A stretch of DNA of 64,000 nt from Candidatus Aenigmatarchaeota archaeon (GTDB taxonomy: Archaea > Aenigmatarchaeota > Aenigmatarchaeia > CG10238-14 > SCSR01), in assembly GCA_038998335.1 (NCBI GenBank), contig JAVZHQ010000001.1, positions 640,001 through 704,000 on the forward strand. Direction: 5' to 3'. The notes below the pieces were generated by a model. The model made no database searches, was not told the origin of the DNA, and worked only from the letters and a program-made list of their open reading frames with translations. Both the position numbers and the translations under genes were made by a program. Positions 10,661-36,329 of the stretch are shown here, piece after piece (the stretch's first letter is position 1; each line of letters starts with the position of its first letter).

Positions 10661-10863
10661 AATTAAATAATGGTTAAAAGAATAAAAAGAATTAACTAGT
10701 TAAAATTTTTTAGTAGTTTTAAAACAATAAAAAATTATGCATTCAAAAATTGAAACTTGTTATGAAAAAATTTGTAAAATGGCAAGAGTTGCCTCAAGCG
10801 TTAATAGAGAATATGTATAAAAACTTATGGGACAGGAGGGATTTGAACCCTCGACACACCGGT

Positions 10864-10875
10864 AACCGCTTAGTT
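10864..10875 (-). other. 12-nt tRNA intron at canonical 37/38 position
   Basis: AACTAAGCGGTT inserted after G37; relaxed BHL-type pairing. Confidence 0.8.
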
Positions 10876-10904
10876 CTTCAGCCGGTTGCTCTCCCGGGCT
10901 GAGC

Positions 10905-10921
10905 TTACAGCACATTAGTGA
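10905..10921 (-). other. 17-nt BHB intron at tRNA position 9/10
   Basis: GGG[ACAG]TA^T-CAC-TAAT-GTG-[CTGT]AA^G-CTC is a strict BHB. Confidence 0.85.
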
Positions 10922-11711
10922 TACTGTCCCTACGACTGTCCCATTTCCTACATAATAAAATGGTTTCTAATTTATTTTGCTTGTTTAGATTTTGAAATCC
11001 TATCTCCTCTTTAAAATTAATTAATGAATTTAACCTTTTAATACGTAACCTTATTCCACAAGTTATTACCCCATCCTTTCGTACATTGAGTGTGTTTGAT
11101 ATAAATATTGTTGATTTTATATTAAAGAATTTTTCAAGACCTTCTTTAATCTCATTTAAGAATTGGAAACCATTATCAAGTAAATTTTGGGATTTCCACA
11201 TTTCCAAACCTATAAATGGGTTGTGTTTGCTGATGTCGACCGTGCCTTCACAATTGAAAACCATCCTAACAAAACTTCTGAAACACTCTTTTTCGTTTTT
11301 AATCCAAGTTGGTACAGAAAACTCTTGCATTACCTTACAACCTTTTGGAACCCCTACTAAATGAAGTACTCTACTCAACAATTTACAATTCACGCCAAAA
11401 TTGAAAGTTTTTCCAAATTTGTTTCCCTTACAAGGCCTCACTCTTCCTTTGATACCGAACAAATTAAAAATTTCATTTCCAAATATTTCTAACTCTTGGA
11501 GATCTTTTGAAGTAAAATCAAATCTCCATTTAGGTTCACCTTGGAGATGCCCATCACACATCAAGGCTGCAACTATAGATGCTAGTTGTGGAGAAGAACG
11601 AACAGGAAACCAATTGCTATGTAAATTAATTGAATTTATTGCATGATCTCTCGATTTGAATAACTTTATTACATCTTCTTCAGTTACTAAAATCTCACTC
11701 ATTTTTAACAC
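10905..11711 (-). CDS. Free-standing double-motif LAGLIDADG homing endonuclease
   Basis: Motifs LASIVAALMCDGHL and FVRMVFNCEGTV; no intein splice residues seen; ORF runs into the tRNA-Phe 5' exon. Confidence 0.85.
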   Translation of the reverse strand: MLKMSEILVTEEDVIKLFKSRDHAINSINLHSNWFPVRSSPQLASIVAALMCDGHLQGEPKWRFDFTSKDLQELEIFGNEIFNLFGIKGRVRPCKGNKFGKTFNFGVNCKLLSRVLHLVGVPKGCKVMQEFSVPTWIKNEKECFRSFVRMVFNCEGTVDISKHNPFIGLEMWKSQNLLDNGFQFLNEIKEGLEKFFNIKSTIFISNTLNVRKDGVITCGIRLRIKRLNSLINFKEEIGFQNLNKQNKLETILLCRKWDSRRDSITNVL

Positions 11712-11802
11712 AAAATAAATAAGAGATAGCCATTTATTTATCTTTCGAAAGTTTAGTTCCGGTAAGTTCTTCTTTTAAGAACTTAGAATCTCTACAAACT
11801 AT

Positions 11803-12483
11803 TTATTTCTTACCAAGCCTAAACTTTATTCCCTCTTTTATAATAAAAATTAATACCCCCAAAACAACTCTTACTCCTCTTATTATTCCACTTTTCTTCT
11901 TGTAAAGAACTTTTACAGGAACTTGTTTTATTTTAAGCCTATTTTTTAAGGCTTGAATAAACAAAGCATTTTCTATTATGTAGCCTCCATAAACAGCCTT
12001 GCTTAAAGTTTTAATTTTGTTTCCAGCTATAGCTATTAAACCACAATTTGTATCTTTAAAGCTAGTTCCAAAAAGTAGATTAAAAGAGTTCTTCCATACA
12101 AAATTTCCAAGTTTATGTCTAAAAGGAATTTTTTTAAAATCTCTATAGCCTGTAACAAACTCAGCTTCTTTTGCTTCTATCGGAGCTAAAAGTTTTAAGG
12201 CTTCTTCTGGGAAGTATTGTAAATCAGCATCAAGAAGAACAACGGCCTTGACATCTTTCCTTCTTTTCAGGAATTCAAAGCCTGTTTTTAAAGCTTCGCC
12301 TTTTCCTTTGTTTACTTCATGTTTTAACACTATGGCTCCAGCTTTTTTTGCTAGCTCGTAAGTTTTATCATGAGAGCAATCGTCGATAACTATTGGAACC
12401 ATATCAAGTTTTTTAACTCTTTTTACAACTTCATAAATCGTTTTTTCCTCGTTATAAGCTGGTATTAGACTAAAAACTTTCAT
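11803..12483 (-). CDS. Family 2 glycosyltransferase (DPM1-like)
   Basis: IPAYNEE, IDDCS.D, NKGKG.A, DADLQ, DTNCG. Confidence 0.92.
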   Translation of the reverse strand: MKVFSLIPAYNEEKTIYEVVKRVKKLDMVPIVIDDCSHDKTYELAKKAGAIVLKHEVNKGKGEALKTGFEFLKRRKDVKAVVLLDADLQYFPEEALKLLAPIEAKEAEFVTGYRDFKKIPFRHKLGNFVWKNSFNLLFGTSFKDTNCGLIAIAGNKIKTLSKAVYGGYIIENALFIQALKNRLKIKQVPVKVLYKKKSGIIRGVRVVLGVLIFIIKEGIKFRLGKK

Positions 12484-12729
12484 AAATAGGTTAAGAAAAA
12501 ATAAACTTTTAAAGGTAAACTTTTTTGATTTCAGCCCACCAATTTTTTCGATTGTACAGATTAAGAGTATCTATAAGCTTATCAAAACTTTCCTTTGATT
12601 CAAAAATTGAAGGACGAGAATCTGGCAGGTAAATATGAAAAAATTTTTTTCTACTTTTTGGGTTTTTAGCTCTACTAAAATTTCATAAACAGGTTCTGTT
12701 GCTTTTCCTTTTAAAAATGGTTAAAGTAG

Positions 12730-13272
12730 CTAAAGATTTATTTTTAAACTTCTCAAAGTATCTTCAAAAATTTTGTAAGTTTTTGAATCGTAAAGGAAAA
12801 ACACAACTCTTTCTATGTTCGTTTTTTCCTTCAAGTAGTTTATAATAGCTTCTAACATTATTCTTGCACATCTTTCTTTTGGAAAACCAAAAGCTCCTGT
12901 TGAGATAGCAGGAAAAGCTATGCTTCTCAAATTATACTTTTCAGCAAGCTTTAGGCTATTCAAAGTTGCGTTTCTTAACTTTTCGTCTTCATTTCCTTCC
13001 CCATAAACAGGACCAACCGCATGGATAACATATTTTACTTTTAGGTTTCCTCCTGAAGTTATTCTTGCTTCCCCAACAGGACAAAAACCTATTTTATCGC
13101 ACTCTTCCTGAATTTTTGGTCCGCCTTTTTTTCTTATCGCTCCTGCTACTCCTCCGCCAAGCTTAAGTTTAGAGTTAGCAGCGTTAACTATTGTATCGCC
13201 TTCGAAATCTGTTATATCACCTTGAATAAGTTCTAAAATGCTTTTGTTAATTTTTACTTTCATAACGCTCAA
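12730..13272 (-). CDS. Macro domain (ADP-ribose binding/hydrolase) protein
   Basis: GDIT, IVNAAN..L..GGGVAGAI, VIHAVGP, AFPAISTGAFGFP. Confidence 0.95.
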   Translation of the reverse strand: MSVMKVKINKSILELIQGDITDFEGDTIVNAANSKLKLGGGVAGAIRKKGGPKIQEECDKIGFCPVGEARITSGGNLKVKYVIHAVGPVYGEGNEDEKLRNATLNSLKLAEKYNLRSIAFPAISTGAFGFPKERCARIMLEAIINYLKEKTNIERVVFFLYDSKTYKIFEDTLRSLKINL

Positions 13273-13323
13273 AAATTTAGAGAAAAATACTGTTTAAATA
13301 ATTTTCGGTAAAAATTACTTTAC

Positions 13324-13833
13324 ATGAAAAAACTAACTACCAAACAATACGTTTCAATATTTTTTTTAATACTCCTTGCGTTTTTCTTTTTAAGTTTTGC
13401 AGAAATAGCAGTAGAAGGTCCTTATGGAGGAGCGACTAAGAGTTATGGTTGGAAGATTCAGATTTATGATTCTGTCTATCTAAGAGAGTATCACTTTTTT
13501 CTATTTTATTTAACAATACCAACACTACTTTCAATTTCTATAATCTTAGTTGGGTTTGATTTAAGATTAATCAGTATTTTAATTTTAGGGTATTCAATTG
13601 GTAGTATTTTAGAAGACTTTTGTTGGTTTGCTTTTAACCCTTACTACGGAATCCACAAATTTTCGCCAGAATTTTATACCTGGACCATTTGGATAAATGT
13701 TTTAGGTTTAAAAATCCCTATACTGTACTTCATTTACTCACTAATAATTCTTGCTGATGTTTTCTTTATTTTAAAAATAATCCCAATTATCGAAAAACAT
13801 AAACAAAATAAACCAGAAATGTTCGGATTTTAA
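13324..13833 (+). CDS. Hypothetical membrane protein
   Basis: 169 aa, about 4 TM segments, EDFCWF.FNP motif. Confidence 0.6.
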   Translation: MKKLTTKQYVSIFFLILLAFFFLSFAEIAVEGPYGGATKSYGWKIQIYDSVYLREYHFFLFYLTIPTLLSISIILVGFDLRLISILILGYSIGSILEDFCWFAFNPYYGIHKFSPEFYTWTIWINVLGLKIPILYFIYSLIILADVFFILKIIPIIEKHKQNKPEMFGF

Positions 13834-13838
13834 TTTAG

Positions 13839-13925
13839 CGCCCTCGCTGGGATTTGAACCCAGGACCTACCGGTTAACAGCCGGGTGCTCTACCACTGAG
13901 CTTTCCTCGTAATTACTACGAGGGC
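13839..13925 (-). tRNA. tRNA-Asn(GTT) with intron at 8/9
   Basis: Removing 13903..13917 gives GCCCTCGTAGCTCAGTGGTAGAGCACCCGGCTGTTAACCGGTAGGTCCTGGGTTCAAATCCCAGCGAGGGCG. Confidence 0.9.
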
Positions 13926-14676
13926 TGCGAGGGCTTAATATATTTTTTAACAACTTGTTTTCATCAATTAAATATTCTTCTATACTTTTATAGAATTTCC
14001 TTAAATTATTAGGCGTTATAACAAAAACTTTATAACCTCTTTGTTGTAAATCCTTTATCTTCTTTTTTAATTTCATAGCTTTATCAAAACCTTTCCACAT
14101 GCTACATTCTACAATAAGGTTACCAACCTTGAAATCTGGGAAATAATATTTTTTATTGACATTTATACAAGGTTCGTATTGATAATTTATTCCAAATTGA
14201 AATAATGTATCAGCAATTTTCTTTTCTAAAGTATTTCTGACGAGTTCACCACGTTTGGTTTTAAATTTGTAGCTTCCAATCTTCTTAAACCGTTCATATT
14301 GCTCTAAGAAATATTTTTCACCTAATTCTTTTCTAAGTTTTTTATGTAACCTGCTAGAAGCTTTTTTCATCTTAATTAGATTTTTTCTGAATGTTTTGCT
14401 TCTAACCTTCTTTAAGTAGCTGGCTTTACCACCAATCCTTTGTTTCCAGTTTTTATCTAACCGTTTTTGAATAATTTGCACGATATCAACTTCTTCTAAA
14501 CCTAAAAATTTCATGAGTTTGTTAAGAACATATCGAGAAATAGGTCTACCTTTATGTTTATAATAATATATTGCAGATTTCACTACATTTAAGGTTTTTG
14601 CCAACTTTCTTTCACTACCAGCCTTTTTTATGGCCATGTTAATTATGTTTTTCTGATCTTTTAATTTAAAATACAT
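13867..14676 (-). CDS. HTH + PD-(D/E)XK-type nuclease, putative free-standing homing endonuclease
   Basis: N-terminal HTH-like SERKLAKTLNVVKSAIYYY; C-terminal GELVRNTLEKKIAD.L...I.Y.YEP...YFPDF...IVE; very basic; reads into tRNA-Asn. Confidence 0.7.
   Translation of the reverse strand: MYFKLKDQKNIINMAIKKAGSERKLAKTLNVVKSAIYYYKHKGRPISRYVLNKLMKFLGLEEVDIVQIIQKRLDKNWKQRIGGKASYLKKVRSKTFRKNLIKMKKASSRLHKKLRKELGEKYFLEQYERFKKIGSYKFKTKRGELVRNTLEKKIADTLFQFGINYQYEPCINVNKKYYFPDFKVGNLIVECSMWKGFDKAMKLKKKIKDLQQRGYKVFVITPNNLRKFYKSIEEYLIDENKLLKNILSPRSPRSNYEESSVVEHPAVNR
13903..13917 (-). other. 15-nt BHB intron at tRNA position 8/9
   Basis: AGC[CCTC]GT^A-GT-AATT-AC-[GAGG]AA^A-GCT is a strict BHB. Confidence 0.85.
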
Positions 14677-14712
14677 AATAAAAACTTTGTTTATTACTAT
14701 TTAAAGTTACTT

Positions 14713-14731
14713 CCAACTGAGCTACGAGGGC
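14713..14731 (-). repeat. Orphan intron-less 5' fragment of tRNA-Asn
   Basis: GCCCTCGTAGCTCAGTTGG; the first 16 nt equal the spliced tRNA-Asn 5' end. Confidence 0.85.
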
Positions 14732-14781
14732 TTTTAAACTACTAATATATTATTAGAAAAAATTTTAAAAGTAAGTTTAAT

Positions 14782-15855
14782 CTAAGGTAAGAAATCCTTT
14801 TTCTCTATTTTTTCTGGCAAATAGTTTTCTGTTATAAATTTCAGGCCTTTTCCTGACAAAGCTTCCAACTCAGCTTTTATTTTCCTTTCAATCATAAGCT
14901 TAAGCTCTTTTTGCCAGACTGGATGTTTGAACCATTCATAATTCAACATTTCTTTTGCTCTTTTTATGTCAACCTCTTCTGCTTTTATAGTAAAATCTTT
15001 TAAACCAAACTTATCTATGTCGCTTATCGTTAAACCTAAAAATTTTGCGTTTGGTGTACCAAGTCTGTCAGAAACATGAGCTAAGCTCATCGAGCCATAT
15101 TTTATAACCGAATAAATGTACCAACCGTAACTGTCTGCATCAGTAAAAACATAAACTGGAAGGTTAAACTCTGTAGCCAATCTTTGAATTAATCTTCTTG
15201 TCCCTCTTGCAGCCTGACCTTGAGTTGTGACTAAAATACACTTGTGTTTTTTCCAAAACTTATCCTCATGCAACCTTTCAAAAGCTGCGTTCTTTTCTAT
15301 AACAAGAATAAAATTAGCGTTAACTTTTTTAAATTCTAAATCTTCTACGTTGCTTGGGATAGCCCAACCCCCTGAACCAAGCTTTGACCAATCAATAGTG
15401 TCTCCTCTATCTCTAATTATCACATCACCTACAACCCTTCCTCTTACGTCAGCGTTTAAATGTAGCTGTTCTCTTAAAACATCTAGCATAACTTCTAAAT
15501 CAACAACTATAGGATCACTTTCATTTTGTTCGTTGAACGTGTTTTCCTGAGAGTTTGGTAAAGTTCTTTTCAAGGCATAAAACAAATCCCTTAGGCTTGT
15601 ATGAAGGTTTTGCTCTAGTAATTCCTTACAAAAAGCAGCAACTAACATAGTTTGCATAAATTTCTTTGCATGTCCAGTGTGAAACAAAAATCTTTTTGCA
15701 GTTTTTTCTCCTAAGGTTAGCATTCCTGTTTTTTTATCGTAAATAATATTAGAAAGTGAACGAATAGGAACTTCTATGTTTGGGTTCTCTTTTTTCTCTA
15801 TATCACTTAGAACTTTTTTCCCTAAATCTTCAAGTTTTTTCTTCGTTTCTTTCAT
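14782..15855 (-). CDS. top6A: DNA topoisomerase VI subunit A
   Basis: SLRDLFY catalytic Tyr, IEK, TDAD.YG toprim motifs, KAELEAL. Confidence 0.96.
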   Translation of the reverse strand: MKETKKKLEDLGKKVLSDIEKKENPNIEVPIRSLSNIIYDKKTGMLTLGEKTAKRFLFHTGHAKKFMQTMLVAAFCKELLEQNLHTSLRDLFYALKRTLPNSQENTFNEQNESDPIVVDLEVMLDVLREQLHLNADVRGRVVGDVIIRDRGDTIDWSKLGSGGWAIPSNVEDLEFKKVNANFILVIEKNAAFERLHEDKFWKKHKCILVTTQGQAARGTRRLIQRLATEFNLPVYVFTDADSYGWYIYSVIKYGSMSLAHVSDRLGTPNAKFLGLTISDIDKFGLKDFTIKAEEVDIKRAKEMLNYEWFKHPVWQKELKLMIERKIKAELEALSGKGLKFITENYLPEKIEKKDFLP

Positions 15856-17497
15856 TTCCAACTACCTCTTTTAAAGTTGTCTGCTTTACCTTTTTAATTT
15901 TTTCCTCTTGCTTTTCTTTTTCAATTTCTTCTTCAGCTTTACTTTCCATTTCCTCTATTGTTAAGTCAACTTTTTTCTTTATCATTTCTTCCAATTTCTT
16001 CAAAATAGTTTTGTAATCTTTATTTGTAAGTTTTGCCACCGCTCTTGCAACTTCTGGCACATACCTTTCAAATATTTGTCTTCTTAAAAGCCTTTCTCTT
16101 GCTTTTCTCTTTTGTCTTATATAGCTTGCAAGCTTCCTTCCTGCATCTTGTAAAGCAAGTTTTATTTCTTTAACAATTTCTGGATAGTTAGCTATTGCCT
16201 GCTTTCCTTCAGAAGTAAAAGGAACCCAAACAGAAGCAAAATGAACAAGAATTGCTAAAGGTCCTACAGGTAAAGAGCCTGCTGATTGTTGTAAGCCATA
16301 TCTTCTCCAATCAACTTCTGCTATTGCTTCTGTTATTGCACAATCTCCTTGATGGTAAAGTAAAGGAACCTTATTCGCAAACCTTAAAATTTTTGCAGTT
16401 TCATTTTCTTGTAACTTTCCTCCATAGGCTAAACCACATTCAACTAAAAATGGATAACCTCTATAAACTGTTGGTGGTCTAGAAACAGCAACATAATACT
16501 CAGCCTCTATTTCTTTTTTCAAACCCTCCTCTATTAACTTTTCTGTTAGCGGAGATAGACAATTTGTTGGTGGAGACATAAGCTTAACCATTTGCATAGC
16601 TTTATGTAACTTTTCAGATTCTTCTGGAGTAAGGTCTTGTGGTTTTCTGTTGAGTTCAATTTTTGCTAGCTTACAAATTTGTTCTGCAGAATTTTTTCCA
16701 ACTCTGCAGAACTCTGTTGTCAAAAAGCTAAGCATATTCTTTGCTTTTGTATCCTTAAGCATTCTTCTCAAAATCCCAAGCTCAACGCCATAAGGATGAG
16801 GTTTAATTTCTTTTGGTTGGGCAGGAATTTCGTTAATTGTTCTTTCAAACTCTATTTTTCCGTTTGGACCATCAAAAATGATACGAGCATAAGGATTGAC
16901 TATTGCTGTTTGTTTTATGTATTCTAAAACGGAAGGTGGTTTTTCTGTGTACCTTCCTTCTATTTCCATCTCTATTCTTACACCATGCCATTTTTTTGAA
17001 TTTTTTTCTTTCTTGAAAGAAATTATGTGAGGCTCATTTTTTGCAACGTCTATCATAAGTTCAAAAATTGTAATATCTTTGCCTGTGCTTGTAATAATTT
17101 TTGTTGGTTTGCCTGTAGTTAATTGAGAATATAGAATTGCACCATGGATGCCTAAACCTTGAACTCCTCGACTTTGTCTAAGCCTATGGAACTTACTTCC
17201 GTACAAAAACTTACCAAAAGCATAAGGTACTTTTGATTCAACTACTCCTGGGCCGTTATCTTCAACTATAACTTTAAACCTATCGATGCCAACTTGCTTA
17301 ACTGAAACATAAATTTCTGGTAAAATGTTTGCTTCATTGGTGGCATCTAACGCGTTATCTAAAGCCTCTTTTACTACTGTAATCAAACTTTTTGTTGGAT
17401 TTTCATAACCTAACAAATGCCTATTTTTCTCGAAAAATTCTGCTACACTAACTTCTCTCATTTCCTTTGCCATTTTTTCAGCAATACTCTCTTCCAT
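15830..17497 (-). CDS. top6B: DNA topoisomerase VI subunit B
   Basis: SVAEFFEKN, EALDNALDA, EDNGPG, SRGVQGLG GHKL motifs, RFANKVPL. Confidence 0.97.
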   Translation of the reverse strand: MEESIAEKMAKEMREVSVAEFFEKNRHLLGYENPTKSLITVVKEALDNALDATNEANILPEIYVSVKQVGIDRFKVIVEDNGPGVVESKVPYAFGKFLYGSKFHRLRQSRGVQGLGIHGAILYSQLTTGKPTKIITSTGKDITIFELMIDVAKNEPHIISFKKEKNSKKWHGVRIEMEIEGRYTEKPPSVLEYIKQTAIVNPYARIIFDGPNGKIEFERTINEIPAQPKEIKPHPYGVELGILRRMLKDTKAKNMLSFLTTEFCRVGKNSAEQICKLAKIELNRKPQDLTPEESEKLHKAMQMVKLMSPPTNCLSPLTEKLIEEGLKKEIEAEYYVAVSRPPTVYRGYPFLVECGLAYGGKLQENETAKILRFANKVPLLYHQGDCAITEAIAEVDWRRYGLQQSAGSLPVGPLAILVHFASVWVPFTSEGKQAIANYPEIVKEIKLALQDAGRKLASYIRQKRKARERLLRRQIFERYVPEVARAVAKLTNKDYKTILKKLEEMIKKKVDLTIEEMESKAEEEIEKEKQEEKIKKVKQTTLKEVVGNERNEEKT

Positions 17498-17501
17498 TTT
17501 A

Positions 17502-17996
17502 TCATGCCCTTTGTTTTTCTAGAAACCTATAAACTGAGGAATGTAAGCTTCCTGACAAAAGCATTTCTATTGCTTTTTTTGCAATCATTATTTTGTCCCA
17601 CTTTCCTATTATACTTATTGTTTTTCCATAGATTGAAATTTTAACGTCAGCATACTTTTCAATTAACTTTTTGGTTTTTCCTTCTGTTCCTATAACCCTT
17701 CCTCTTAAGGTTATCATTCTATTTCTAGACTTTTTTGAATAATCTTTTATGTCAATTATCTCAAGGTAATAGTCTTCGTCTAAAAGGTTAAGAGCAACGT
17801 TAAAATCAAAACCTCTTCCAAAAGCTTTCAAAACTTCCTTTATTCTCATAAGCCTTAGAGGATCTTCGCACTCTATCGAAATTTCTTCGTTTATTTCAAT
17901 TTTTGAATCAGTAAATTTTTCAAGTTGTTCTATAAGCTTCTTGTTTTTTCTCAAAATTTTTAACCTTTCTTCTGGAATTGCTATGTAATCTATCAT
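17502..17996 (-). CDS. KH-domain rRNA processing protein (Dim2/Pno1-like)
   Basis: AFGRGF, GRVIGTEGKTK, GSLHSSVYRFLE. Confidence 0.9.
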   Translation of the reverse strand: MIDYIAIPEERLKILRKNKKLIEQLEKFTDSKIEINEEISIECEDPLRLMRIKEVLKAFGRGFDFNVALNLLDEDYYLEIIDIKDYSKKSRNRMITLRGRVIGTEGKTKKLIEKYADVKISIYGKTISIIGKWDKIMIAKKAIEMLLSGSLHSSVYRFLEKQRA

Positions 17997-18727: not shown

Positions 18728-18768
18728 ATCATCACTAATTAGGTTTAGAAAAAATAAAAATTAGGAAA

Positions 18769-19095
18769 TTATTCAATAGAAATACTCTTAACAAAACCTT
18801 TTCTTTTAAGCCAGTTTGCTTGAGTAGGGGTATACCTAAAAATTATATCCCCTCTTTCGTTGCTTTGAACATTCCAAGGCTGGATTAAAATTAAATCTCC
18901 AACTTTTATCCAAACTCTTTTTCTTAGCCTACCGGGAATTCTGCATATTCTTGTATTACCGTCATCACACTTTGCTTTAACTTTATCAGCCCCCAACATC
19001 ATCTCAACAACTCCTAAAACTTCACCTTCTCTTGGGATTCTTATTCTTGCTACCTCTAGCTCCTCTGGCGTAGGCTGATACTTTTTCTTACCCAT
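18769..19095 (-). CDS. eif1a: Translation initiation factor aIF-1A
   Basis: C.DG.TRICRIPGRLRKRVWIK.GD. Confidence 0.96.
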   Translation of the reverse strand: MGKKKYQPTPEELEVARIRIPREGEVLGVVEMMLGADKVKAKCDDGNTRICRIPGRLRKRVWIKVGDLILIQPWNVQSNERGDIIFRYTPTQANWLKRKGFVKSISIE

Positions 19096-19773: not shown

Positions 19774-19782
19774 AATTAAAAC

Positions 19783-20691: not shown

Positions 20692-20747
20692 AATCTCACA
20701 ACTATAAAGTTTAAAAAGTAAAAATTTATATAAAGAGTTTAGTTTAA

Positions 20748-20820: not shown

Positions 20821-20857
20821 TGAAATACTTAAGTTCTTAATTCTCCAGAATAAGAAT

Positions 20858-25227: not shown

Positions 25228-25272
25228 GTTTAAAATTTGGATTAAAAGAATATCAAGATAGATTATTTTAAC

Positions 25273-29158: not shown

Positions 29159-30671
29159 AATAACCTGCCTCCTTTAACTTTGTCTTTATAAAATTATAGG
29201 CGTTCGAATCAAATTTATTTGGATAGCCAGCCATCCCGCTACATGTTAAAGGGTTTTTGATATTTGCGCCGCCTCCCATTATACAAGTTTCATAAGGCGG
29301 CCCTGCTACTGACATTTTTTCTCCACATGTTCCAACTTGGCATGGAGAATTGTCTATGCTACAATCGTTCACACAAGAATTTGGTGGACCAACTCCTGTA
29401 TTGAGAGGATAGGGATTCCCACAACCAGAATAGGGAGGACCACTTTCACTATAATAAGGAAAAGTAAATGTAGTAAATCGTAAATTTTCTCCCTCCCATA
29501 CGCTTTTCTTATACTCGTCACAGAGTTTTAATTGATGTCCTATTTCATGCGAAATGCAATATTTATCCAAATCGTCTGGTAAACCACCAAAACAAATCAC
29601 AAAAGGATAAGGAGGAGTTGCATAACCATTACATATAGGGTCATCGTTAAAAGCTGCTACAAGGTCAAAATCTGTTACACCAGAATTTTGAACACATTCT
29701 ATCGCTTCTGATGGGCAAGTGAAGTCCAAATCTGTACAATGACAGTTAAGATTAAGATATTCTATCGTAATCGAATCTGGACATTCTCTGAATGGACTTA
29801 CTGAAAGAAACCTTTCCATTCTGTCCATTGCTCTTGTTAAGTAAGAACTCATATCATCGTAGTTAATAGCAACAGTAACTATTTTAAAAATTTTAGTTGT
29901 TTTACAATCATTGCTATATTCATTTTCATCCATACACCTTGCTTCTCCATTTTTTGGATTATTACACCATTTTGGTTTACTTTCTGGACAACAATGTTTG
30001 TTTGAGCATATCGGTTTATCGGATGGGCAACAAACTCTTCCTTGGGAATCTATCCATAAGCCAGAATCAGTAGAACCTAAACAAACACTTTCAGCAGGGC
30101 AGAGTGGAGGTTTGTCACACTGTCTGCTAGAGTTCAAATACTTTGAACAACAAGCTAAAGAATCAGGAGCATACTCTCCATTGGGAGCACAATTTTGATT
30201 GCAAGTATATTTATCTTTTTGACCCCAACAAAAACCTGAACAACAAGCTAAAGAAAAAGAACAAGCTTCTCCGTTTTCCAAACATCTTCCCATAATAAAA
30301 ATCTTGTTTTCCATTTTGGCTATTGTAATTTTTTTACTATCTTCAAAAAAATTGCTAACTATTTCTGGCATTTGCTTTGAAAAGCTTGCTGTTTTGTTCA
30401 AGTTTTTATCATGAACAAAAACTGTATTATTTTCTATTTTAACGTAATATCTGACTAAAGGCGGGTAATAAACAAAAACTACATCTCCACTAGTTGCTAT
30501 TGCTTTGTCTATTATAGCTTCTAAATCTTTAGCAAATATTACAACAACCTCTTCCTTAGCAATTTGTGTTTGAACGTTGTAGAAAGAGAGTAGTTGATAA
30601 ACAGTTATGCCAGAAGCGACCAAAACTCCAATTATTAATATCGTTTCTGTAATCCCAAACTGAGCTTTCAT
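29151..30671 (-). CDS. Pilin-signal Cys-rich zinc metalloprotease-like protein
   Basis: MKAQ...E signal; Cys-rich repeats; HEIGH.L.L.DEY zinc motif and CIMG Met-turn. Confidence 0.72.
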   Translation of the reverse strand: MKAQFGITETILIIGVLVASGITVYQLLSFYNVQTQIAKEEVVVIFAKDLEAIIDKAIATSGDVVFVYYPPLVRYYVKIENNTVFVHDKNLNKTASFSKQMPEIVSNFFEDSKKITIAKMENKIFIMGRCLENGEACSFSLACCSGFCWGQKDKYTCNQNCAPNGEYAPDSLACCSKYLNSSRQCDKPPLCPAESVCLGSTDSGLWIDSQGRVCCPSDKPICSNKHCCPESKPKWCNNPKNGEARCMDENEYSNDCKTTKIFKIVTVAINYDDMSSYLTRAMDRMERFLSVSPFRECPDSITIEYLNLNCHCTDLDFTCPSEAIECVQNSGVTDFDLVAAFNDDPICNGYATPPYPFVICFGGLPDDLDKYCISHEIGHQLKLCDEYKKSVWEGENLRFTTFTFPYYSESGPPYSGCGNPYPLNTGVGPPNSCVNDCSIDNSPCQVGTCGEKMSVAGPPYETCIMGGGANIKNPLTCSGMAGYPNKFDSNAYNFIKTKLKEAGYCE

Positions 30672-31171
30672 CTAATTGTTATATTGACTTTTTCGCTGCT
30701 TATTTTTTTAATTTCTAATTCGTATTCCTTAAAAGGGGCGCTCCCCAATATTTTGCTCACCGAAACCCAAATATCCTCTTTTTCTGGCAAAACTCCTAGA
30801 TAAGGCATGGTTAAGTTACAATAAAGTTTTTGACATCTCAAATAATTTTCATCCTTAAACTGCAAGCATAAGTTATAACCAGAACTTAAATTTTGATTTT
30901 TAATTAAATCAACAACTTTTATAGGAATTTTTTTCTCATCTGTAGAAAAAACAACCCTTGTTTGAAACTCAAACCTATATTTTTTAACAAGAGAATTGTT
31001 AATCTCTTGAACACAAACTGAATTTATATCAGTAAACAAATCTGAGAATTGTGATAAAGTATTCTGCTTTTGAGAAAAGTTGATGGCTGAAGAAATTAGA
31101 TGGTAAGCTATGGCTAAAATTAAAATGCTTATAACAATTCCACCAACAACATAAACCCATACTTCTGGCAT
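30668..31171 (-). CDS. Pilin-like protein
   Basis: N-terminal hydrophobic helix, within the pilin operon. Confidence 0.6.
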   Translation of the reverse strand: MPEVWVYVVGGIVISILILAIAYHLISSAINFSQKQNTLSQFSDLFTDINSVCVQEINNSLVKKYRFEFQTRVVFSTDEKKIPIKVVDLIKNQNLSSGYNLCLQFKDENYLRCQKLYCNLTMPYLGVLPEKEDIWVSVSKILGSAPFKEYELEIKKISSEKVNITIR

Positions 31172-31197
31172 TAATTAAAAAATAGCTTTTTTAGAAT

Positions 31198-31767
31198 TTA
31201 TGGACATTCTTCTGTATAGCCAGAAGCTATCCACCAATAAGATTCGTTATGGCCTGTAGTTTTATCTTCAAAGAAGCAAGTTCCTGGGTTTATGTCCCTT
31301 CTTACCATTTTAATCGCATCTTCCTTTGTAATGTAGCCAAGAGTTTGATTATAATAATTACAAAGCAATCTTAAACAATTTGCAGCCGATAGTTGATAAT
31401 TGCCGCATCTACAATCAGGATAAATGTGAAAACAATAAATCCCATCCTCACAAAGAGGAATTCCTTCTACCAAATTACCAACGTTTTTTTCCATTTTTTT
31501 CCCGTTCCAGTTAATATCAAGTTCTACCTTTCTCTCACAAAAATTTTTTCCAGCAATTTCATCACAACTTATTCTATAATTATCGCATAAATTCTTGCAT
31601 TCCAAATAAGCCTGCTCATAACCTCCTGCATCAGTTAATCTTTTAACTGGCTCCAAAATTGGAGTAACTGAAACATATTGAGAAACTAGCCTTATTACAA
31701 CTAAGGTTACAACAATCATTATAAATAAAAGAAAAACTATTTCTAGTGCCGTCAATCCTTTTTTCAT
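31198..31767 (-). CDS. Class III signal peptide pilin-like protein, Cys-rich
   Basis: MKKGLTALE signal with Glu at +5. Confidence 0.75.
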   Translation of the reverse strand: MKKGLTALEIVFLLFIMIVVTLVVIRLVSQYVSVTPILEPVKRLTDAGGYEQAYLECKNLCDNYRISCDEIAGKNFCERKVELDINWNGKKMEKNVGNLVEGIPLCEDGIYCFHIYPDCRCGNYQLSAANCLRLLCNYYNQTLGYITKEDAIKMVRRDINPGTCFFEDKTTGHNESYWWIASGYTEECP

Positions 31768-31800
31768 ACAATTAGAATTTCTTTTTTTTATATTTAATAG

Positions 31801-32199
31801 TTAGCATTTAATTGAAATGTTGTACTTTATAAAATCATACTCAAGAAAAACAGAAGTTGCATCGGGGTTTCCACAATTCCATTCACAGTTTGGATGTGAA
31901 AAAGAAGCTAAAGAGATAGAACCATTAATAACATAACAAAGACAACTTTGCTTCAAGTTTATTTTACCAGTTTTTTGCCAGCATAAATCACAGTATTTTT
32001 TCAAAGTATTTTCGTTTATTTGCTCGCTAATCAATTGAGTTTCACACTTTTTTTCTTCTTCACAAGGAGGAAAAAAACAAGGAAGTTTTATTAGAGTAGC
32101 CAAATGCTTAAGGTTAAAAATTATCCCTATTATAACCACTACTGCAACTATAAGAATAAAAACTTTAAAGATTAGCTCTAAAGCCATCTCTGCCATCAA
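31801..32199 (-). CDS. Pilin-like protein
   Basis: N-terminal TM; CW..T....C motif shared with its neighbours. Confidence 0.6.
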   Translation of the reverse strand: MMAEMALELIFKVFILIVAVVVIIGIIFNLKHLATLIKLPCFFPPCEEEKKCETQLISEQINENTLKKYCDLCWQKTGKINLKQSCLCYVINGSISLASFSHPNCEWNCGNPDATSVFLEYDFIKYNISIKC

Positions 32200-32690
32200 A
32201 TTACCTCAATTAATTTACTCGTTGCATTATAATAAATTCCTACGGATTTTGGCATTTCTATAATCCCAACCTTCCAGTCTATTATATCTCTATAATCAGG
32301 GGGAAGTTGAGAAGTTACGTTATCCTTCATGACTTTGTCGTCAAGCTTTTTCAAAACAATTTCATAACAAATTTTATCGGTTTCTAATTCAACTTTTGCA
32401 GTAGTGCTCCAGCATGCTAAGGAATACTCAGCAATTTTTCTTGAGATATAATTTACATCACCACTTTCTATTGTTATTGTTGGAAAAATTTGAGGAGTTT
32501 CGCAAAAAGCTGGTAAGGAAGGTTTTAAGGCACTTGGTAAAGGAAGGAAAGAATTTAAGCCAAAAAGAAAATCGCAATAAACTTTTCTTAAAGAAGGGGA
32601 AAGCTGTAAGCCTATGTAAGTTATTAGAAGGGAAATCGCTACTATCGCTATTAGGATATAAGCTATTGTGCTTAAAGCTATACCTTTCAT
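32196..32690 (-). CDS. Class III signal peptide pilin-like protein
   Basis: MKGIALS signal; CW....C motif. Confidence 0.7.
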   Translation of the reverse strand: MKGIALSTIAYILIAIVAISLLITYIGLQLSPSLRKVYCDFLFGLNSFLPLPSALKPSLPAFCETPQIFPTITIESGDVNYISRKIAEYSLACWSTTAKVELETDKICYEIVLKKLDDKVMKDNVTSQLPPDYRDIIDWKVGIIEMPKSVGIYYNATSKLIEVI

Positions 32691-33082
32691 TCAAACTCGA
32701 CCAAACTTATTTCTTCCCCTGTATAATTGTATCTAACTTTAATCGTATAATTTTGATCTTTTTCTAAAAAATCGAAATAAGCTTTGACTGGAATTAAAAA
32801 AAAGCTTTCTATTTCGCTTTTCTCTATTTTTTCTGAGCTACTTATTCTTACGATATAACAATCGTCATTATAAACATCCTTGCCAAAATCGTGCTTGCTC
32901 CAACAATTTTCTACACAAACTTTTAAAGAAGTTAAGATTTTATACTTACTTCCTGTTAAAAATTCTTCGCAAGTTTTTGAAGGGGAATATAAAAATGAGA
33001 TATAGATATAAACAGCAAATACCGCTACCATAATCAAAATCATGCTCATTAAAATTTTTCCTGTTTCCATATCATCAACCAA
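32687..33082 (-). CDS. Pilin-like protein
   Basis: N-terminal TM; CWS...DC motif. Confidence 0.6.
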   Translation of the reverse strand: MVDDMETGKILMSMILIMVAVFAVYIYISFLYSPSKTCEEFLTGSKYKILTSLKVCVENCWSKHDFGKDVYNDDCYIVRISSSEKIEKSEIESFFLIPVKAYFDFLEKDQNYTIKVRYNYTGEEISLVEFE

Positions 33083-35153
33083 GCTCGATTGAAATTCCTA
33101 AACTGTAAAATAGGAGTAGGCCAAAGAAAGAAACCATTCCATATACAAGAATTGCAGTAATCAAAGTTTTTCCTATTGTGTAATCCCTTGCAACTTTATC
33201 AAAACCGTTTTCTATTCCGCTTAAAAGCATAGCAAGTAAAGCAACAGTTTCAACAGTATAAATGCCTATTGCCGCTTGAAGGACTGTAAGAGGAACTAAT
33301 TCTTTAAAACTTCCTATTAGAATGTTTATAAAATTCTCTCCTCCTGTTAAAACGCCAAAACCGAGACTTTTCTCTATTTCTGCAAGCTTATCGGCAAGAA
33401 TTCTCAAAACATTTATTATAAAAATTGTTAGAGAACCTATTATCCCACAAATAAGCGGAACTACAAAACTTGCTTGAAGCCTTATTGCGGATCTTGTGTT
33501 TTCTAACAATTCTCTTATCTTTAATTCGATAGAATGAACGTTATCCAAGTAGTTTGCTATTGTTCTTGCTATAACTCCTAGCAAAACTGTGCTTTTTTCG
33601 GAAGCGTCAGACAAAACCTTCATTATATCCTCTATAAGGCGAGAAGGAAAGTACCTTAAAATTCCATGCTTTTCGTCGAACAAAGCCTTTCTAAAAGTCA
33701 TACCAAAATTCCTTATGTTTATCAAAAGTTTTGTTAGGAATGAATGAATTGCCCTTTTCTGCATCCCAAGCTTTTGATACTCTTCTAAGCTTTTGTTTAT
33801 CGCAACTTCTATAGGCATTCCTTCTGATAAAAAATTACCAAGAGTTACTAAGCCTGTTCTAAACTCGTCTTCTATGTTTTTAATCTGGTTTCTTATTTTT
33901 ACTCTTTGGAAACTTCTAAAGTAAAAATAAGAAATTACCATAGCAGCAAAACCTGCTGTTATAGAAAAGGTTGAAAGCAAATTTTCTAAGTTCATCTCTG
34001 CTTCTTTTTTCAAAATAGCTTCTTTGGCTGTTTCTGATGCTACTGAAAGGGAAGTATAAAGGTCAATAAAGTGGAAAATTCCGTAAAGCATCATAAGCAA
34101 GCCTATAAGAAAAGAGAAGAAAATTATTGGGATATAAAGATTAGTTTTTCCTAACTTTAAAACAAAAAAATTCTCTCTTGGTAGTTCAGGGTGTTTAGAA
34201 ATGTCTGGTGAAATAAAAGCTCCTGGTCTTTTCTTAAGTATTCTGTGGATGAAAAATAGGTTTAACAGCGGTAAAAGAACTGTATAACCTAAGATTAGCT
34301 GAAAAACATTTACTTGCTGATGTAAAAAGATTGCTACCATAGGAAACATAACTATTCCAAGAGCTGGAAGCATTATGCCAAAAAGATGGATCAACATTAA
34401 AGGAGAGGAAATTTCCTCAACATAGAGTTTCATTCTTTCATGAGTTGATTCAAGAATATAACTTAAAGCTTTTCTTAAAGTTGCCTCTCTTCTTTCTTCT
34501 GTAGCTTCTCTTAAAGTTCCGTACAATAAATTTACCGAGCGAACAAAATCTTCGTTCCAAATTGCCCATTTTGGCATGTAATAACTTAAGGCTTCTTCAA
34601 CTGTTGTATACTTTCCAACTTGCAAATCCCACATAGCTTTTTTCATATCGTTTGTTATTGGCCCAGAAATGTGAGTAGTTACAAAGTTTACTGCACCTTC
34701 AAAAGTTGGATTAAGTTTTAAATAAATAACCATGTACAAGATTATTTTTATTGATTCATCCCCTGCCTGAATCCTAATAACTTGGGAAAGAAATGAAGGG
34801 TAAGTCAAGATGTACCAAAAGATTATAAAAGGTAAAATTGAAAGAAAAATTAAGGTTACAAAATCTTGAATTATCAAGGAAAACAAGGCAAAAACTATAA
34901 AGGAAAGGATAAGAGCAAGGATTGAAGAAGAAAATACTCCTTCTGGGCTTGCTACGAGAGAAGAAAATGCTATATCTGTTTTAAGTTTTTCTTCCAAACT
35001 TTTTGGAGGTTTTATCCTTAACTTTTCTCCTATTTTACAAAACTTTTCGTAAAAAGTTTGTGGCTTTCTTGTTTTTTGCTCAGCTAGAAGGAAATCCAAA
35101 TATTCCTTGGAAAAATACTTTTTTTCCTCTTCTTTTTTCTTTCTTATCATCAA
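33075..35153 (-). CDS. TadC/ArlJ-like pilus membrane platform protein
   Basis: 692 aa with two T2SS-F-like modules; paralog of 50049..52094. Confidence 0.8.
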   Translation of the reverse strand: MMIRKKKEEEKKYFSKEYLDFLLAEQKTRKPQTFYEKFCKIGEKLRIKPPKSLEEKLKTDIAFSSLVASPEGVFSSSILALILSFIVFALFSLIIQDFVTLIFLSILPFIIFWYILTYPSFLSQVIRIQAGDESIKIILYMVIYLKLNPTFEGAVNFVTTHISGPITNDMKKAMWDLQVGKYTTVEEALSYYMPKWAIWNEDFVRSVNLLYGTLREATEERREATLRKALSYILESTHERMKLYVEEISSPLMLIHLFGIMLPALGIVMFPMVAIFLHQQVNVFQLILGYTVLLPLLNLFFIHRILKKRPGAFISPDISKHPELPRENFFVLKLGKTNLYIPIIFFSFLIGLLMMLYGIFHFIDLYTSLSVASETAKEAILKKEAEMNLENLLSTFSITAGFAAMVISYFYFRSFQRVKIRNQIKNIEDEFRTGLVTLGNFLSEGMPIEVAINKSLEEYQKLGMQKRAIHSFLTKLLINIRNFGMTFRKALFDEKHGILRYFPSRLIEDIMKVLSDASEKSTVLLGVIARTIANYLDNVHSIELKIRELLENTRSAIRLQASFVVPLICGIIGSLTIFIINVLRILADKLAEIEKSLGFGVLTGGENFINILIGSFKELVPLTVLQAAIGIYTVETVALLAMLLSGIENGFDKVARDYTIGKTLITAILVYGMVSFFGLLLFYSLGISIELG

Positions 35154-35207
35154 TTAATTTTTGGCTTTTTCTTGAATTAAATTTAAAAAAAGAAAGAAAA
35201 GAAGACA

Positions 35208-35529
35208 TTACTTTGCTAAAGTAATGTCTATGGTTGAAACATTCACTTTTGTTTTGTCTTCTAGTTCTCTTTCCTCTGTTCCTATCTCTATTGATTTTAT
35301 TTTCACTCCTTCGACAAACCTTCTTCTTACTATTTCTGCAACGTCTACTGCTCTACTAATAGCTTTTCCTCTTGCCTTTATGTGAACCTCTGGCTTTCCG
35401 TCAGAGAACTGAGTTATTACTCCTAACACATAAGCCATACTTGGTTTGCATTCGGTCGATGCTGCTTTGACAGCATCAATGTCCGACAAAGATTACATTG
35501 TCCTCAGTTTTTTCCTGTTTTTCTACCAT
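35208..35529 (-). CDS. albA: DNA/RNA-binding protein Alba, split by a 31-nt intron (exons 35529..35481 and 35449..35208; 96 aa)
   Basis: Spliced product [25 protein letters not shown]...[16 protein letters not shown]...VSTIDI; SD GGAGGTGA upstream. Confidence 0.9.
35450..35480 (-). other. 31-nt BHB intron in alba mRNA
   Basis: TTTG[TCGG]AC^A-TTGATGCTGT-CAAA-GCAGCATCGA-[CCGA]AT^G-CAAA; contains an in-frame TGA; excision restores the frame. Confidence 0.88.
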
Positions 35530-35531
35530 TT

Positions 35532-36329
35532 CTATTCACCTCCTATTAATCTGTTTAATTTTTCCATTTTTTCCGGATAGTTAAAGCCTACAAGCTCCGA
35601 AAATCTCTTCATGGACTTATGGCTTATTACTAGCTCGTATTTTGGATTTTTTCCAAAACTATTCTTAGGTAATATTTTGTAAATAAACGATCTAATTCCT
35701 AAGGAAAACAAAAGTTTTTGAATACCTTCGATTAGTTTTTTATCTGAATTGTAAATAACTATTTTATAGTTTCTTTTATATTTTTGTCTATTCTTATCGA
35801 AACTTTTAAATATAGTTACAGAACCTTCTGCGTCAGCAACACCTCTTATAAAACTTACAATTTCTTCATCAGTCCTCAAAGAAGATAAATCTAAAAATTT
35901 GAACAACTTTACCGCTTCTATAGAGTTTAAAAATATATACCATAAAAAGTTTCCATTACCGGTCCTGTATTTTTTAATCGTAACATTTAACCCGCTCCAG
36001 TTTTTAAGCTTTTCTTTCAATATTTGGGCGAATTCTTGGTTAGAAGTAGTTATATGAATGAAATTTTTTGCGATGTGTCCATTACCTTTTATCACACCAA
36101 ACAGATATGCTAACTCTGGACTCATACTTTTAGAAATAAGCTTTTTTGATTTTTTTTCACTGATTTTCTTTTTAGTTTCTTCAGTATGATGCTTACCCAA
36201 CATAGGTCTTGGGTGTGTATGTACCTTACCACATTTTTTACATAAACAAAAATTATAACCACGAAAACTTGGAATCTTACTAACTAGTTTTCCAGGCGTT
36301 TCTGAGATTTCTGTTTCCATTAAATACAC
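35532..36329 (-). CDS. Free-standing LAGLIDADG endonuclease with NUMOD3-like motif
   Basis: LAYLFGVIKGNG and FIRGVADAEGSV motifs; GKHHTEETKKKISEK; CxCxxC..H. Confidence 0.85.
   Translation of the reverse strand: MYLMETEISETPGKLVSKIPSFRGYNFCLCKKCGKVHTHPRPMLGKHHTEETKKKISEKKSKKLISKSMSPELAYLFGVIKGNGHIAKNFIHITTSNQEFAQILKEKLKNWSGLNVTIKKYRTGNGNFLWYIFLNSIEAVKLFKFLDLSSLRTDEEIVSFIRGVADAEGSVTIFKSFDKNRQKYKRNYKIVIYNSDKKLIEGIQKLLFSLGIRSFIYKILPKNSFGKNPKYELVISHKSMKRFSELVGFNYPEKMEKLNRLIGGE
35536..35543 (-). promoter_or_regulatory. Shine-Dalgarno of alba, embedded in the last codons of the LAGLIDADG ORF
   Basis: GGAGGTGA, 6 nt before the ATG at 35529. Confidence 0.8.

Follow-up and report, generated by a model that had tools for sequence, protein, structure and literature searches.

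Free-standing nuclease genes paired with bulge-helix-bulge micro-introns at the 5′ ends of archaeal tRNA and protein genes: putative homing cassettes in an Aenigmatarchaeota genome

Within a 64,000-nucleotide stretch from Candidatus Aenigmatarchaeota archaeon (assembly GCA_038998335.1, contig JAVZHQ010000001.1, positions 640,001 to 704,000; this whole stretch is called the window and its own numbering is used below), three free-standing genes of mobile-type nucleases directly precede the genes of tRNA-Phe, tRNA-Asn and the protein Alba, and each of these target genes is predicted to carry near its start a tiny intron with a bulge-helix-bulge (BHB) splice motif. Related archaea show the pairing repeatedly, which may throw light on the origin and spread of such introns. 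Sequence comparisons support an association of nuclease and micro-intron far in excess of chance, as a unit that is optional in sister genomes. We consider it fairly probable that each locus is a homing cassette, whose micro-intron shields the cut site from the nuclease. Such a cassette would consist of the nuclease open reading frame (ORF), a replacement copy of the first 8–50 nt of the gene and a BHB micro-intron of 15–31 nt; it would invade the 5′ end of a conserved gene and sit behind the target's promoter and, in some loci, behind a relic of the old 5′ end. By analogy, this reading combines collaborative homing, known from phages, with the end replacement described for the WHO elements of yeasts.

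Nuclease genes and interrupted target genes in the window

The following features carry the finding (the analysed genome is denoted G000, its sisters and other relatives by further G numbers and individual loci by L numbers).

10905..11711, minus strand: nuclease 1, a free-standing double-motif LAGLIDADG ORF (Pfam and translation)
10930..10828, minus strand: tRNA-Phe(GAA) with two introns (sequence reading, Rfam, ARAGORN after deletion)
10921..10905, minus strand: BHB micro-intron of tRNA-Phe, 17 nt, after tRNA position 9; outer helix GGG:CUC, central helix ACAG:CUGU, bulges UAU/AAG, inner helix CAC:GUG
10863..10874 (boundaries ±1), minus strand: second intron of tRNA-Phe, about 12 nt, at the canonical position beside the anticodon (sequence reading)
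13867..14676, minus strand: nuclease 2, an ORF with helix-turn-helix (HTH) and PD-(D/E)XK (T7 endonuclease I-like) parts (family profile match)
13925..13839, minus strand: tRNA-Asn(GUU) with one micro-intron (sequence reading, Rfam)
13917..13903, minus strand: BHB micro-intron of tRNA-Asn, 15 nt, after tRNA position 8; outer helix AGC:GCU, central helix CCUC:GAGG, bulges GUA/AAA, inner helix GU:AC
35532..36329, minus strand: nuclease 3, a LAGLIDADG and NUMOD3 ORF (Pfam)
join(35529..35481, 35449..35208), minus strand: alba in two exons, 96 codons once spliced (sequence reading, Pfam, relatives' loci)
35480..35450, minus strand: BHB intron of alba, 31 nt, after nt 49; outer helix UUUG:CAAA, central helix UCGG:CCGA, bulges ACA/AUG, inner helix of 9–10 bp

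An earlier reading of the window, made from its sequence only, had proposed the three nuclease ORFs, their head-to-tail placement and the three micro-introns; all of these were recovered, the ORFs at the given coordinates on the minus strand, two of them overlapping their target and the third stopping 2 nt before the alba ATG. The canonical-position intron of tRNA-Phe had been overlooked; it is absent from the tRNA-Phe orthologues of G004, G003 and G012. The non-conserved tail of nuclease 1 is translated through a tandem copy of the tRNA acceptor strand (described below), tRNA positions 1–9 and the micro-intron, the final 3 nt of which form its stop codon TAA. The conserved part of nuclease 2 likewise stops near position 13930, and its tail runs into tRNA-Asn.

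LAGLIDADG motifs end in a catalytic acidic residue (Asp or Glu). The match of nuclease 1 to Pfam LAGLIDADG_3 is marginal (E 1.1e-4, 22.8 bits at a cut-off of 22.5), and both acidic residues are in place as read from its translation (D in ..MCDGH.., E in ..NCEGT..). Nuclease 3 matches the same family over two stretches with E 2.4e-21 and matches NUMOD3 as well; its second motif is AEG and its first GNG (..VIKGNGH..), with Asn for the usual acidic residue. Possession of two motifs classes both proteins, by sequence, as putative LAGLIDADG homing endonucleases. A close homologue of nuclease 3 was absent among 61 relatives (best 36% identity). For nuclease 2 there are only weak HTH matches in Pfam, and a search of NCBIfam with its family gave no match; a profile of eight family members aligned with phage T7 endonuclease I (2pfj; E 2.9e-5) over the PD-(D/E)XK core, with E, PD and E in register. 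Residues E151, P180-D181-F182, E190 and K206 are invariant in 8/8 sequences and the K of ExK varies.

The introns were sought by a scanner for the strict hBHBh′ pattern, in which the central helix has 4 bp, each of the two bulges 3 nt, and the outer and inner helices no fewer than 3 and 2 bp, respectively, the elements being laid out as outer helix, 4-bp helix, 3-nt bulge and inner helix with the 3′ strand mirrored, and cut after the second bulge nucleotide. All three window introns fit it. On contigs C1 and C2, both strands counted, the strict pattern gave 47,308 hits, among which the alba intron ranks 8th; its fold has a z of −4.08, 0/200 shuffles fold as well and the ViennaRNA centroid shows the BHB directly. 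Predicted splicing restores the motif NVIFVG-R-KPSMAYV, which is uninterrupted in 28/30 alba loci of relatives. In the tRNAs it would yield GGGACAG-UA-GCUC (tRNA-Phe) and GCCCUCG-UA-GCUC (tRNA-Asn), with the U8-A9-G10 junction restored in both.

For tRNA detection ARAGORN (default mode, plus a deletion test) and Rfam tRNA matches were used; the deletion test is ambiguous where tandem or partial acceptor copies permit two splice registers. In default mode ARAGORN calls neither window tRNA, and among the 45 Rfam tRNA matches of G000 tRNA-Phe is the weakest (30.9 bits) and tRNA-Asn the sole partial one (model positions 9–63). Once one segment is deleted tRNA-Phe is called, as was tested on the near-identical locus of G001. 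The contrast with the remaining tRNAs of the window, drawn by the earlier reading, holds: tRNA-Val and tRNA-Thr have no intron, tRNA-Trp has a canonical-position intron only, and beside none of them is there a LAGLIDADG_3 or nuclease-2 match. G000 also holds an uninterrupted tRNA-Asn(GUU) with a different acceptor stem at C1:165506-165577 (−), and the nuclease-linked gene is therefore a duplicate isoacceptor. A third tRNA-Asn(GUU), on the small contig C5 (8883-8958, −), encodes its CCA end and looks bacterial, so that C5 may be foreign to the bin.

Further free-standing nucleases of the genome

Eight free-standing nuclease ORFs were found in G000, seven of the LAGLIDADG type and nuclease 2, and four of the eight precede a gene with a non-canonical 5′ BHB micro-intron, i.e., tRNA-Phe, tRNA-Asn, alba and, outside the window, the gene of fructose-1,6-bisphosphate aldolase/phosphatase (FBPase). 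There a LAGLIDADG ORF (C1:45599-46579) is followed about 55 nt later by the FBPase gene, whose intron (C1:46651-46673) is a perfect 23-nt BHB, rank 2 of the 47,308 hits, and whose predicted removal gives IKADIGSLVGH. Across G000 a search for frame-restoring BHB motifs returned 453 candidates and was too noisy, so that further protein-gene introns were possibly overlooked; among the top-scoring candidates inspected, only the FBPase and alba introns restored a conserved frame. Another LAGLIDADG ORF, C1:370897-371550 (+), extends over the 5′ end of tRNA-Cys, whose only intron is canonical and 31 nt long, and two larger HTH-LAGLIDADG ORFs have no evident partner gene.

Presence and absence among relatives

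The earlier reading had proposed a comparison of orthologous loci, and at alba, FBPase and psmA, the proteasome-alpha gene, this comparison shows nuclease and intron together or both absent in the sisters. Thirty alba loci were read: the intron occurs in G000 and in G019, a member of another genus, only, and the two share its site and resemble each other in its sequence; in G001, G003 and G005, which belong to the genus of G000, alba has neither intron nor nuclease, and G000 has both. Of 14 FBPase loci those of G000 and G003 hold nuclease and intron and the other 12 neither, the motif being uninterrupted in 12/14. Between G000 and G003 the FBPase intron has acquired compensatory changes in its central (ACAU:GUGU to ACGU:GCGU) and inner helices. 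In psmA intron and nuclease are present in G003 and both missing from G000. The tRNA-Phe locus of G001 equals that of G000, the one of G002 is cut by a contig end, and in G005 and G012 there is no nuclease, no micro-intron and no tandem copy. Judged from alignments, alba, FBPase, tRNA-Phe and psmA are optionally occupied at a fixed site among otherwise collinear relatives. An apparently clean indel between the tRNA-Phe loci of G004 and G000, flanked by AAATGG, was rejected, as the alignment merely loses homology at the end of the upstream gene; homology resumes about 4–16 nt before the tandem copy.

At larger scale the nuclease families were sampled in 301 genomes of the class, and the target genes of nuclease-1 and nuclease-2 homologue loci were classed by eye. 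Homologues of nuclease 1 occur in 90/301 genomes. In the 29 loci that were read, 22 stand before a tRNA (Phe 9, Trp 7, Arg 3, Pro 2, Leu/Ser 1), four before psmA with one or more micro-introns near MGYDR, and one runs into the beginning of a minD-like gene, whose Walker A codons are split by a micro-intron (GKGGVG/KTTT, the slash marking the site); two are unclear. All nine closest homologues (44–98% identity, five taxonomic families) lie just before tRNA-Phe(GAA), which is interrupted after position 3, 8 or 9. A 5′-proximal interruption was seen in 21/22 of the nuclease-1-linked tRNAs, the Leu/Ser case being intact. Left unedited, 13 of the 22 were uncalled by ARAGORN, six had about 4/7 acceptor pairs, one was mistyped and one was intact; a single deletion in the first 25 nt gave a full acceptor stem at about 18 of 22, and in this test no good call was obtained for L099, L102 and L107. 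On a quick IQ-TREE phylogeny of 29 nuclease-1 proteins the target labels change 7 times versus 13–18 times in 300 shuffles, so that nuclease lineage and neighbouring gene go together; the ten tRNA-Phe-linked nucleases form one clade (SH-aLRT 99) from five taxonomic families.

Nuclease-2 homologues are rarer (13/301 genomes). Among 12 loci of the class sample, six stand before a tRNA (Asn three times, Lys twice, Pro once; five interrupted), two lie in rRNA and four are broken, weak or unclear. The tRNA-Asn genes of G001 and G085 have introns, and those of tRNA-Lys (G205, G114) and tRNA-Pro (G147) each carry a 5′ micro-intron; the rRNA cases are inside 16S/23S-like sequence of G139 and G051 (L076, L081). 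A wider scan gave seven loci, three of them duplicates of known ones (L116 is 100% identical to the query); the four new loci, from records titled Pace-, Woese- and Nanoarchaeota, precede tRNA-Asn (three) and tRNA-Thr (one), all with a D-loop intron.

The insertion sites fall within invariant motifs: tRNA positions 8–10 or the D-loop, VG/RKP of Alba, ADIG/S of FBPase, Walker A of minD and the vicinity of GYDR in psmA. In the set of psmA and minD/ParA-like loci made up of L109 (G027), L115 (G171), L110 (G147), L108 (G003) and L113 (G185), each gene comes after a LAGLIDADG(-HTH) ORF, and psmA shows one to three apparent micro-introns in its first ~150 nt. At L004 (G020:C45) a LAGLIDADG ORF is followed by an exonuclease-like gene, in which LDIE/TTDLKADIG is split by about 32 nt with a 7–9 bp hairpin; removal of 32 nt would restore the motif, but the best BHB register is 30 nt.

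Scars at the 5′ ends of the target genes

Two further features, the first of which had been overlooked by the sequence-only reading, bear on how the nuclease genes came to their places.

14731..14713, minus strand: intron-less fragment of the tRNA-Asn 5′ end, 19 nt (tRNA positions 1–19), upstream of the nuclease 2 start
36403..36358, minus strand: alba promoter block, near-identical to the block directly before the intron-less alba of G001 and here located upstream of nuclease 3

The 19-nt fragment is read as a relic of the invaded tRNA-Asn, still behind a promoter-like AT box. Comparable intron-less tRNA relics, which stand behind a TATA-like box upstream of the nuclease-2 ORF, keep positions 1–19 (G000 and G001), 1–10 (L117), 1–12 (L118) or 1–15 (L120); they end 0–11 nt from the intron site of the full copy, and in L120 exactly at it.

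At the alba locus the ribosome-binding site and ATG region of nuclease 3 aligns with the old leader and start of alba with a score of 45 versus 25.3 ± 4.5 for shuffled sequence, a score reached by 1/500 shuffles, the similarity being modest. Identity between the alba genes of G000 and G001 amounts to 38/45 (84%) in exon 1, 54/60 (90%) in the first 60 nt of exon 2 and 172/177 (97%) beyond, and since divergence rises towards the intron, the pattern is what co-conversion around a break should produce. Upstream of alba the two genomes differ by a rearrangement, since G001 has a different, divergent gene there; in G000 a cysteine-rich, repeat-rich surface-type protein of 1640 aa (36400..41322, −) ends at the alba promoter block. 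When the FBPase loci of G000 and G005 are aligned, homology ends at the start codon of the upstream gene, which is divergent, and picks up again with the first post-intron codon; the stretch in between measures 1,143 nt in G000 versus 114 nt in G005. The leader motif found in relatives ahead of the FBPase ATG occurs in G000 both before the nuclease and before the new ATG.

The nuclease is thus wedged between the promoter or old 5′ end of its target and an intron-bearing replacement 5′ end, an arrangement more specific than the one first proposed. The combination of a new gene-end copy with a relic of the old end, which marks WHO-like elements, is apparent at the tRNA-Asn relics, the alba leader and the FBPase leader, the relics being short. 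Together with the divergence gradient these scars point to a transfer of nuclease, new 5′ exon and intron together at the DNA level. In sum, the picture is that of a nuclease, a new 5′ end and a micro-intron attached as one cassette to the resected left end of a broken target, whose promoter would drive it. As the cassette sits behind the promoter of its target, nuclease and target are probably co-transcribed.

Could the upstream fragments be true 5′ exons instead? Under this alternative, which we regard as unlikely, the loci would be ordinary ORF-bearing mobile BHB introns, like those of archaeal rRNA genes, about 0.8 kb would be spliced out, and the internal exon copy with its "micro-intron" would be a later add-on or an alternative 5′ splice site. 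The tRNA-Asn loci do have an intron-less 5′ fragment behind a TATA-like box, which in L120 ends at the intron site; the fragment shares the outer- and central-helix nucleotides with the proximal copy and hence could pair with the same 3′ splice region; nucleases of the same family lie inside 16S and 23S rRNA genes (L076, L081), and ARAGORN joins 14731..13838 as a single tRNA with an 800-nt intron. However, alba and FBPase lack an upstream exon-1 copy that reaches the splice site, the old alba start being fused to the nuclease and the old FBPase leader breaking off before the ATG. Moreover, the tRNA-Asn fragment of G000 extends to position 19 and not to the 8/9 splice site, no BHB was found by hand, in a search that was not exhaustive, between the fragment at 14731 and the 3′ site in the tRNA-Asn D-loop, and tRNA-Phe of G004 keeps the tandem copy and the micro-intron without an ORF.

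A probable stand-in acceptor strand at the tRNA loci

Both window tRNAs are preceded by a 7-nt copy of their acceptor 5′ strand, 11–12 nt upstream, which the sequence-only reading had likewise missed.

10936..10942, minus strand: tandem copy GGGACAG of the tRNA-Phe acceptor 5′ strand (sequence reading)
13928..13934, minus strand: tandem copy GCCCTCG of the tRNA-Asn acceptor 5′ strand (sequence reading)

The copy is also present at tRNA-Lys of G205, tRNA-Arg of G009 (L103) and tRNA-Phe of G001, G003 and G004. When the three tRNA-Phe species are compared (G003 and G004 versus G000), 7/7 nt of the copy are identical while the 4–5 nt spacer differs. It is not universal, as two perfect copies were found in 2/19 of the relatives' loci scanned.

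What such a copy may do is suggested by ViennaRNA ensembles, in which it pairs with the 3′ acceptor strand with a probability of 1.00 (L087) and 0.95 (L103). With the copy kept, the central helix of the BHB forms with a probability of 0.98–1.0 in tRNA-Asn and 0.34–0.38 in tRNA-Phe; with the copy replaced or removed these values are 0.02–0.08 and 0.00, and at 65 °C the results are similar. According to these models the copy is probably a stand-in partner of the 3′ acceptor strand, so that the BHB can fold in spite of the rival cloverleaf. At L103 and L097 the copy would appear, in addition, to resemble an intron-less relic that extends past the intron site.

Proposed cycle and loci with a single partner

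The events envisaged for a cassette may be described in four steps. First, the nuclease would make a double-strand break in intron-less alleles, within the highly conserved stretch around the intron site. Second, repair from the cassette-bearing allele would copy the nuclease, the new 5′ exon and the intron. Third, the intron would split the recognition sequence, and EndA together with the RNA ligase RtcB would remove it from the RNA, leaving the gene unharmed. At tRNA loci the tandem acceptor copy would pair with the 3′ acceptor strand and thereby free the true 5′ strand for the BHB. Fourth, after fixation the nuclease would decay or be lost, and an orphan non-canonical intron would stay behind. 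Cleavage specificity, shielding, splicing and co-transcription are what we infer from the arrangement of the loci. An rtcB gene is present in G000, and the presumed splicing enzyme is encoded in the window.

9547..10113, minus strand: endA, 188 aa, the sole tRNA-splicing-endonuclease homologue found in G000

Several observations weigh against this reading. Taken alone, the motifs of tRNA-Phe (rank ~3,600 of 47,308, fold z −0.21) and tRNA-Asn (rank ~5,070, fold z −2.73) are weak, and these two introns are called from the restored tRNA junction and from orthologues, not from the motif score. Nuclease 3 may be a nickase or inactive because of the Asn in its first motif, the FBPase-linked nuclease of G003 has a frame break near its end, and only a single EndA gene was found. 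Introns occur without nucleases: that of alba in G019 is preceded by an unrelated ORF of 317 aa and a spacer of ~240 nt, and tRNA-Phe of G004, and probably of G003, has the tandem copy and the micro-intron, pairing kept, with a 112-nt spacer upstream in G004 and only ~60 nt upstream visible in G003. The alba gene of G019 has a second insert (L026, G019:C13) after ..LGVI, 18 nt with two TAA codons and a relaxed BHB (CGUG:CACG central, GGUU:AACC inner, no outer helix), and no nuclease nearby. Nucleases without a 5′ intron are met at rtcB, whose GTG start is overlapped by a LAGLIDADG ORF (C1:119762-120604, +), at tRNA-Asn of G079 (L122), at DUF763 of G037 and at a tRNA of G008 (L112), and the FBPase-linked nuclease has a homologue in G019 that is found in convergent orientation at the 3′ end of an FBPase gene lacking the intron. 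Finally, since the relatives are kin, counts across them overstate independence.

These cases qualify the earlier claim that nuclease and intron spread together. In its favour are their linkage, co-presence in sisters, the scars and the correspondence of nuclease lineages to their targets, and against it the loci with intron or nuclease only; introns independent of nucleases, which the earlier reading had named as evidence to the contrary, do exist in part (alba of G019, tRNA-Phe of G004 and probably G003). Homing endonuclease genes follow a cycle of invasion, fixation and decay, and the single-partner loci fit such gain and decay, without proving it.

The same loci may be read as a sign that nucleases and micro-introns are independent, the nucleases settling behind strong promoters and the BHB introns arriving otherwise, with no protection involved. 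Promoter capture is indeed evident, and several micro-intron sites in psmA and alba of relatives have no adjoining nuclease. Nevertheless, this explanation seems improbable to us: both protein-gene introns of G000 and its two abnormal tRNAs of 45 directly follow four of the eight free-standing nuclease ORFs, presence and absence agree in the sisters for alba, FBPase and psmA, the relics end 0–11 nt from intron sites and divergence climbs towards the alba intron. That the nuclease-like proteins are domesticated helpers, i.e., maturase-like splicing or folding factors or regulators of the downstream gene, and not mobile, might be suggested by the catalytic acidic residue missing from nuclease 3, the HTH domains of nuclease 2 and several LAGLIDADG relatives and the probable co-transcription with targets, but it is very unlikely, given a patchy distribution among sister species, unlike that of a needed factor, introns that persist without the ORF, and intact catalytic motifs in nuclease 1, the FBPase-, tRNA-Cys- and rtcB-linked ORFs and the nuclease-2 family; moreover, BHB splicing is not known to depend on helpers.

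Relation to known systems and significance

The nearest parallels to the proposed homing cassettes are dispersed over several systems. In cyanophage S-PM2 collaborative homing pairs the free-standing F-CphI with the adjacent psbA gene and its intron (Zeng, Bonocora and Shub, 2009, via PMC6083498), and T4 mobE with the I-TevIII intron is a further case (PMC2790892). The likeness lies in a free-standing homing endonuclease gene that adjoins a gene whose nuclease-less intron splits the target, so that joint spread is possible. In the phages, however, the intron is a self-splicing group I intron, and both cleavage and protection were demonstrated, whereas the loci reported here are known from sequence alone, belong to DPANN archaea, involve protein-spliced BHB introns of 15–31 nt, include tRNA targets and have the 5′ end of the gene replaced. 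The WHO elements of Torulaspora and Lachancea yeasts (Coughlan et al., 2020, PMC7282813) are homing elements, neither intron nor intein, which reside beside their target, swap the gene end for a resistant copy and leave relics. They differ as eukaryotic elements with an intein-derived nuclease that replace the 3′ end of FBA1, and their resistance comes from sequence differences, not from an intron.

In Caldiarchaeum subterraneum the tRNA-Thr(GGU) locus comprises a 5′ tRNA fragment, a mobile insert and then a full tRNA gene with an extra intron, for which the authors proposed a route of intron gain (Sugahara et al., 2012, PMC3293823). That insert is 1.8 kb long, transposon- or plasmid-like and encodes a predicted recombinase, and no homing endonuclease, protein-gene case or recurrence across lineages is described for it. 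LAGLIDADG endonucleases encoded within archaeal rRNA BHB introns (I-DmoI, I-PorI and others; PMC6125680) share enzyme family, intron type and host splicing with the present loci, and some homologues found here lie in 16S/23S genes (L015, L076, L081); there the ORF is inside the intron, whereas here it stands outside, upstream of a tiny ORF-less intron.

BHB introns removed from protein-gene transcripts by tRNA splicing enzymes are represented by the cbf5 pre-mRNA intron of Crenarchaeota (Watanabe, 2002; Yokobori, 2009, PMC2738675) and by a 5′-UTR (untranslated region) intron of HVO_1309, whose report calls cbf5 the only other such case reported (PMC7714728, 2020). The genes here are alba, FBPase, psmA and minD-like and exonuclease-like genes, each with a neighbouring nuclease gene. 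A literature search, with supplementary files (including the mobile-element tests of an Asgard preprint) outside its scope, brought up no publication in which free-standing homing endonucleases are connected with BHB introns. Both a review (PMC4090602) and that preprint on Asgard tRNA introns (October 2026, 10.64898/2026.10.13.758758) leave the route of intron arrival open, and the word "homing" is absent from the passages of them that were accessible.

If read correctly, the loci offer a concrete DNA-level route by which archaeal tRNA introns reach non-canonical positions, with natural intron-less alleles in sister genomes. cbf5 would no longer stand nearly alone among archaeal protein genes with BHB introns, the count of which would rise considerably; annotation probably records such genes, wrongly, as truncated or frameshifted. 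In the nucleases, hot-spring archaea would provide new site-specific enzymes that are directed at universally conserved sequences. May one go further and regard free-standing homing endonucleases as a general engine of archaeal intron gain, which cut invariant sites, select, carry and spread tiny BHB introns and leave orphans, the tRNA cassettes bringing a stand-in acceptor strand of their own? This is a tentative extension, to which we give rather less than an even chance; if true, it would account for the non-canonical tRNA introns that are scattered among DPANN and other archaea, and a hidden class of introns in protein genes would come to light.

Other observations in the genome

In G000 31 matches to Pfam LAGLIDADG_3 were counted, and the frames that hold them include seven of 217–475 aa and eight long ones of 793–2046 aa. 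The latter bear one to six matches each (C1 at ~439–442, 534–537 and 711–715 kb, and others) and are presumably inteins, an unusually heavy load for a 1-Mb genome.

The endA gene lies about 700 nt downstream of the interrupted tRNA-Phe, and in G294 and G029 the gene after tRNA-Phe likewise opens with an EndA-like N-terminus (MAEKIYEGELLENRV..), so that this neighbourhood is conserved. The best BHB motif of G000 is intergenic (L055, C1:124181-124259, +), with helices of 8 + 4 + 8 bp and a 79-nt insert that has its own hairpin, and may represent a BHB-processed or circular small RNA.

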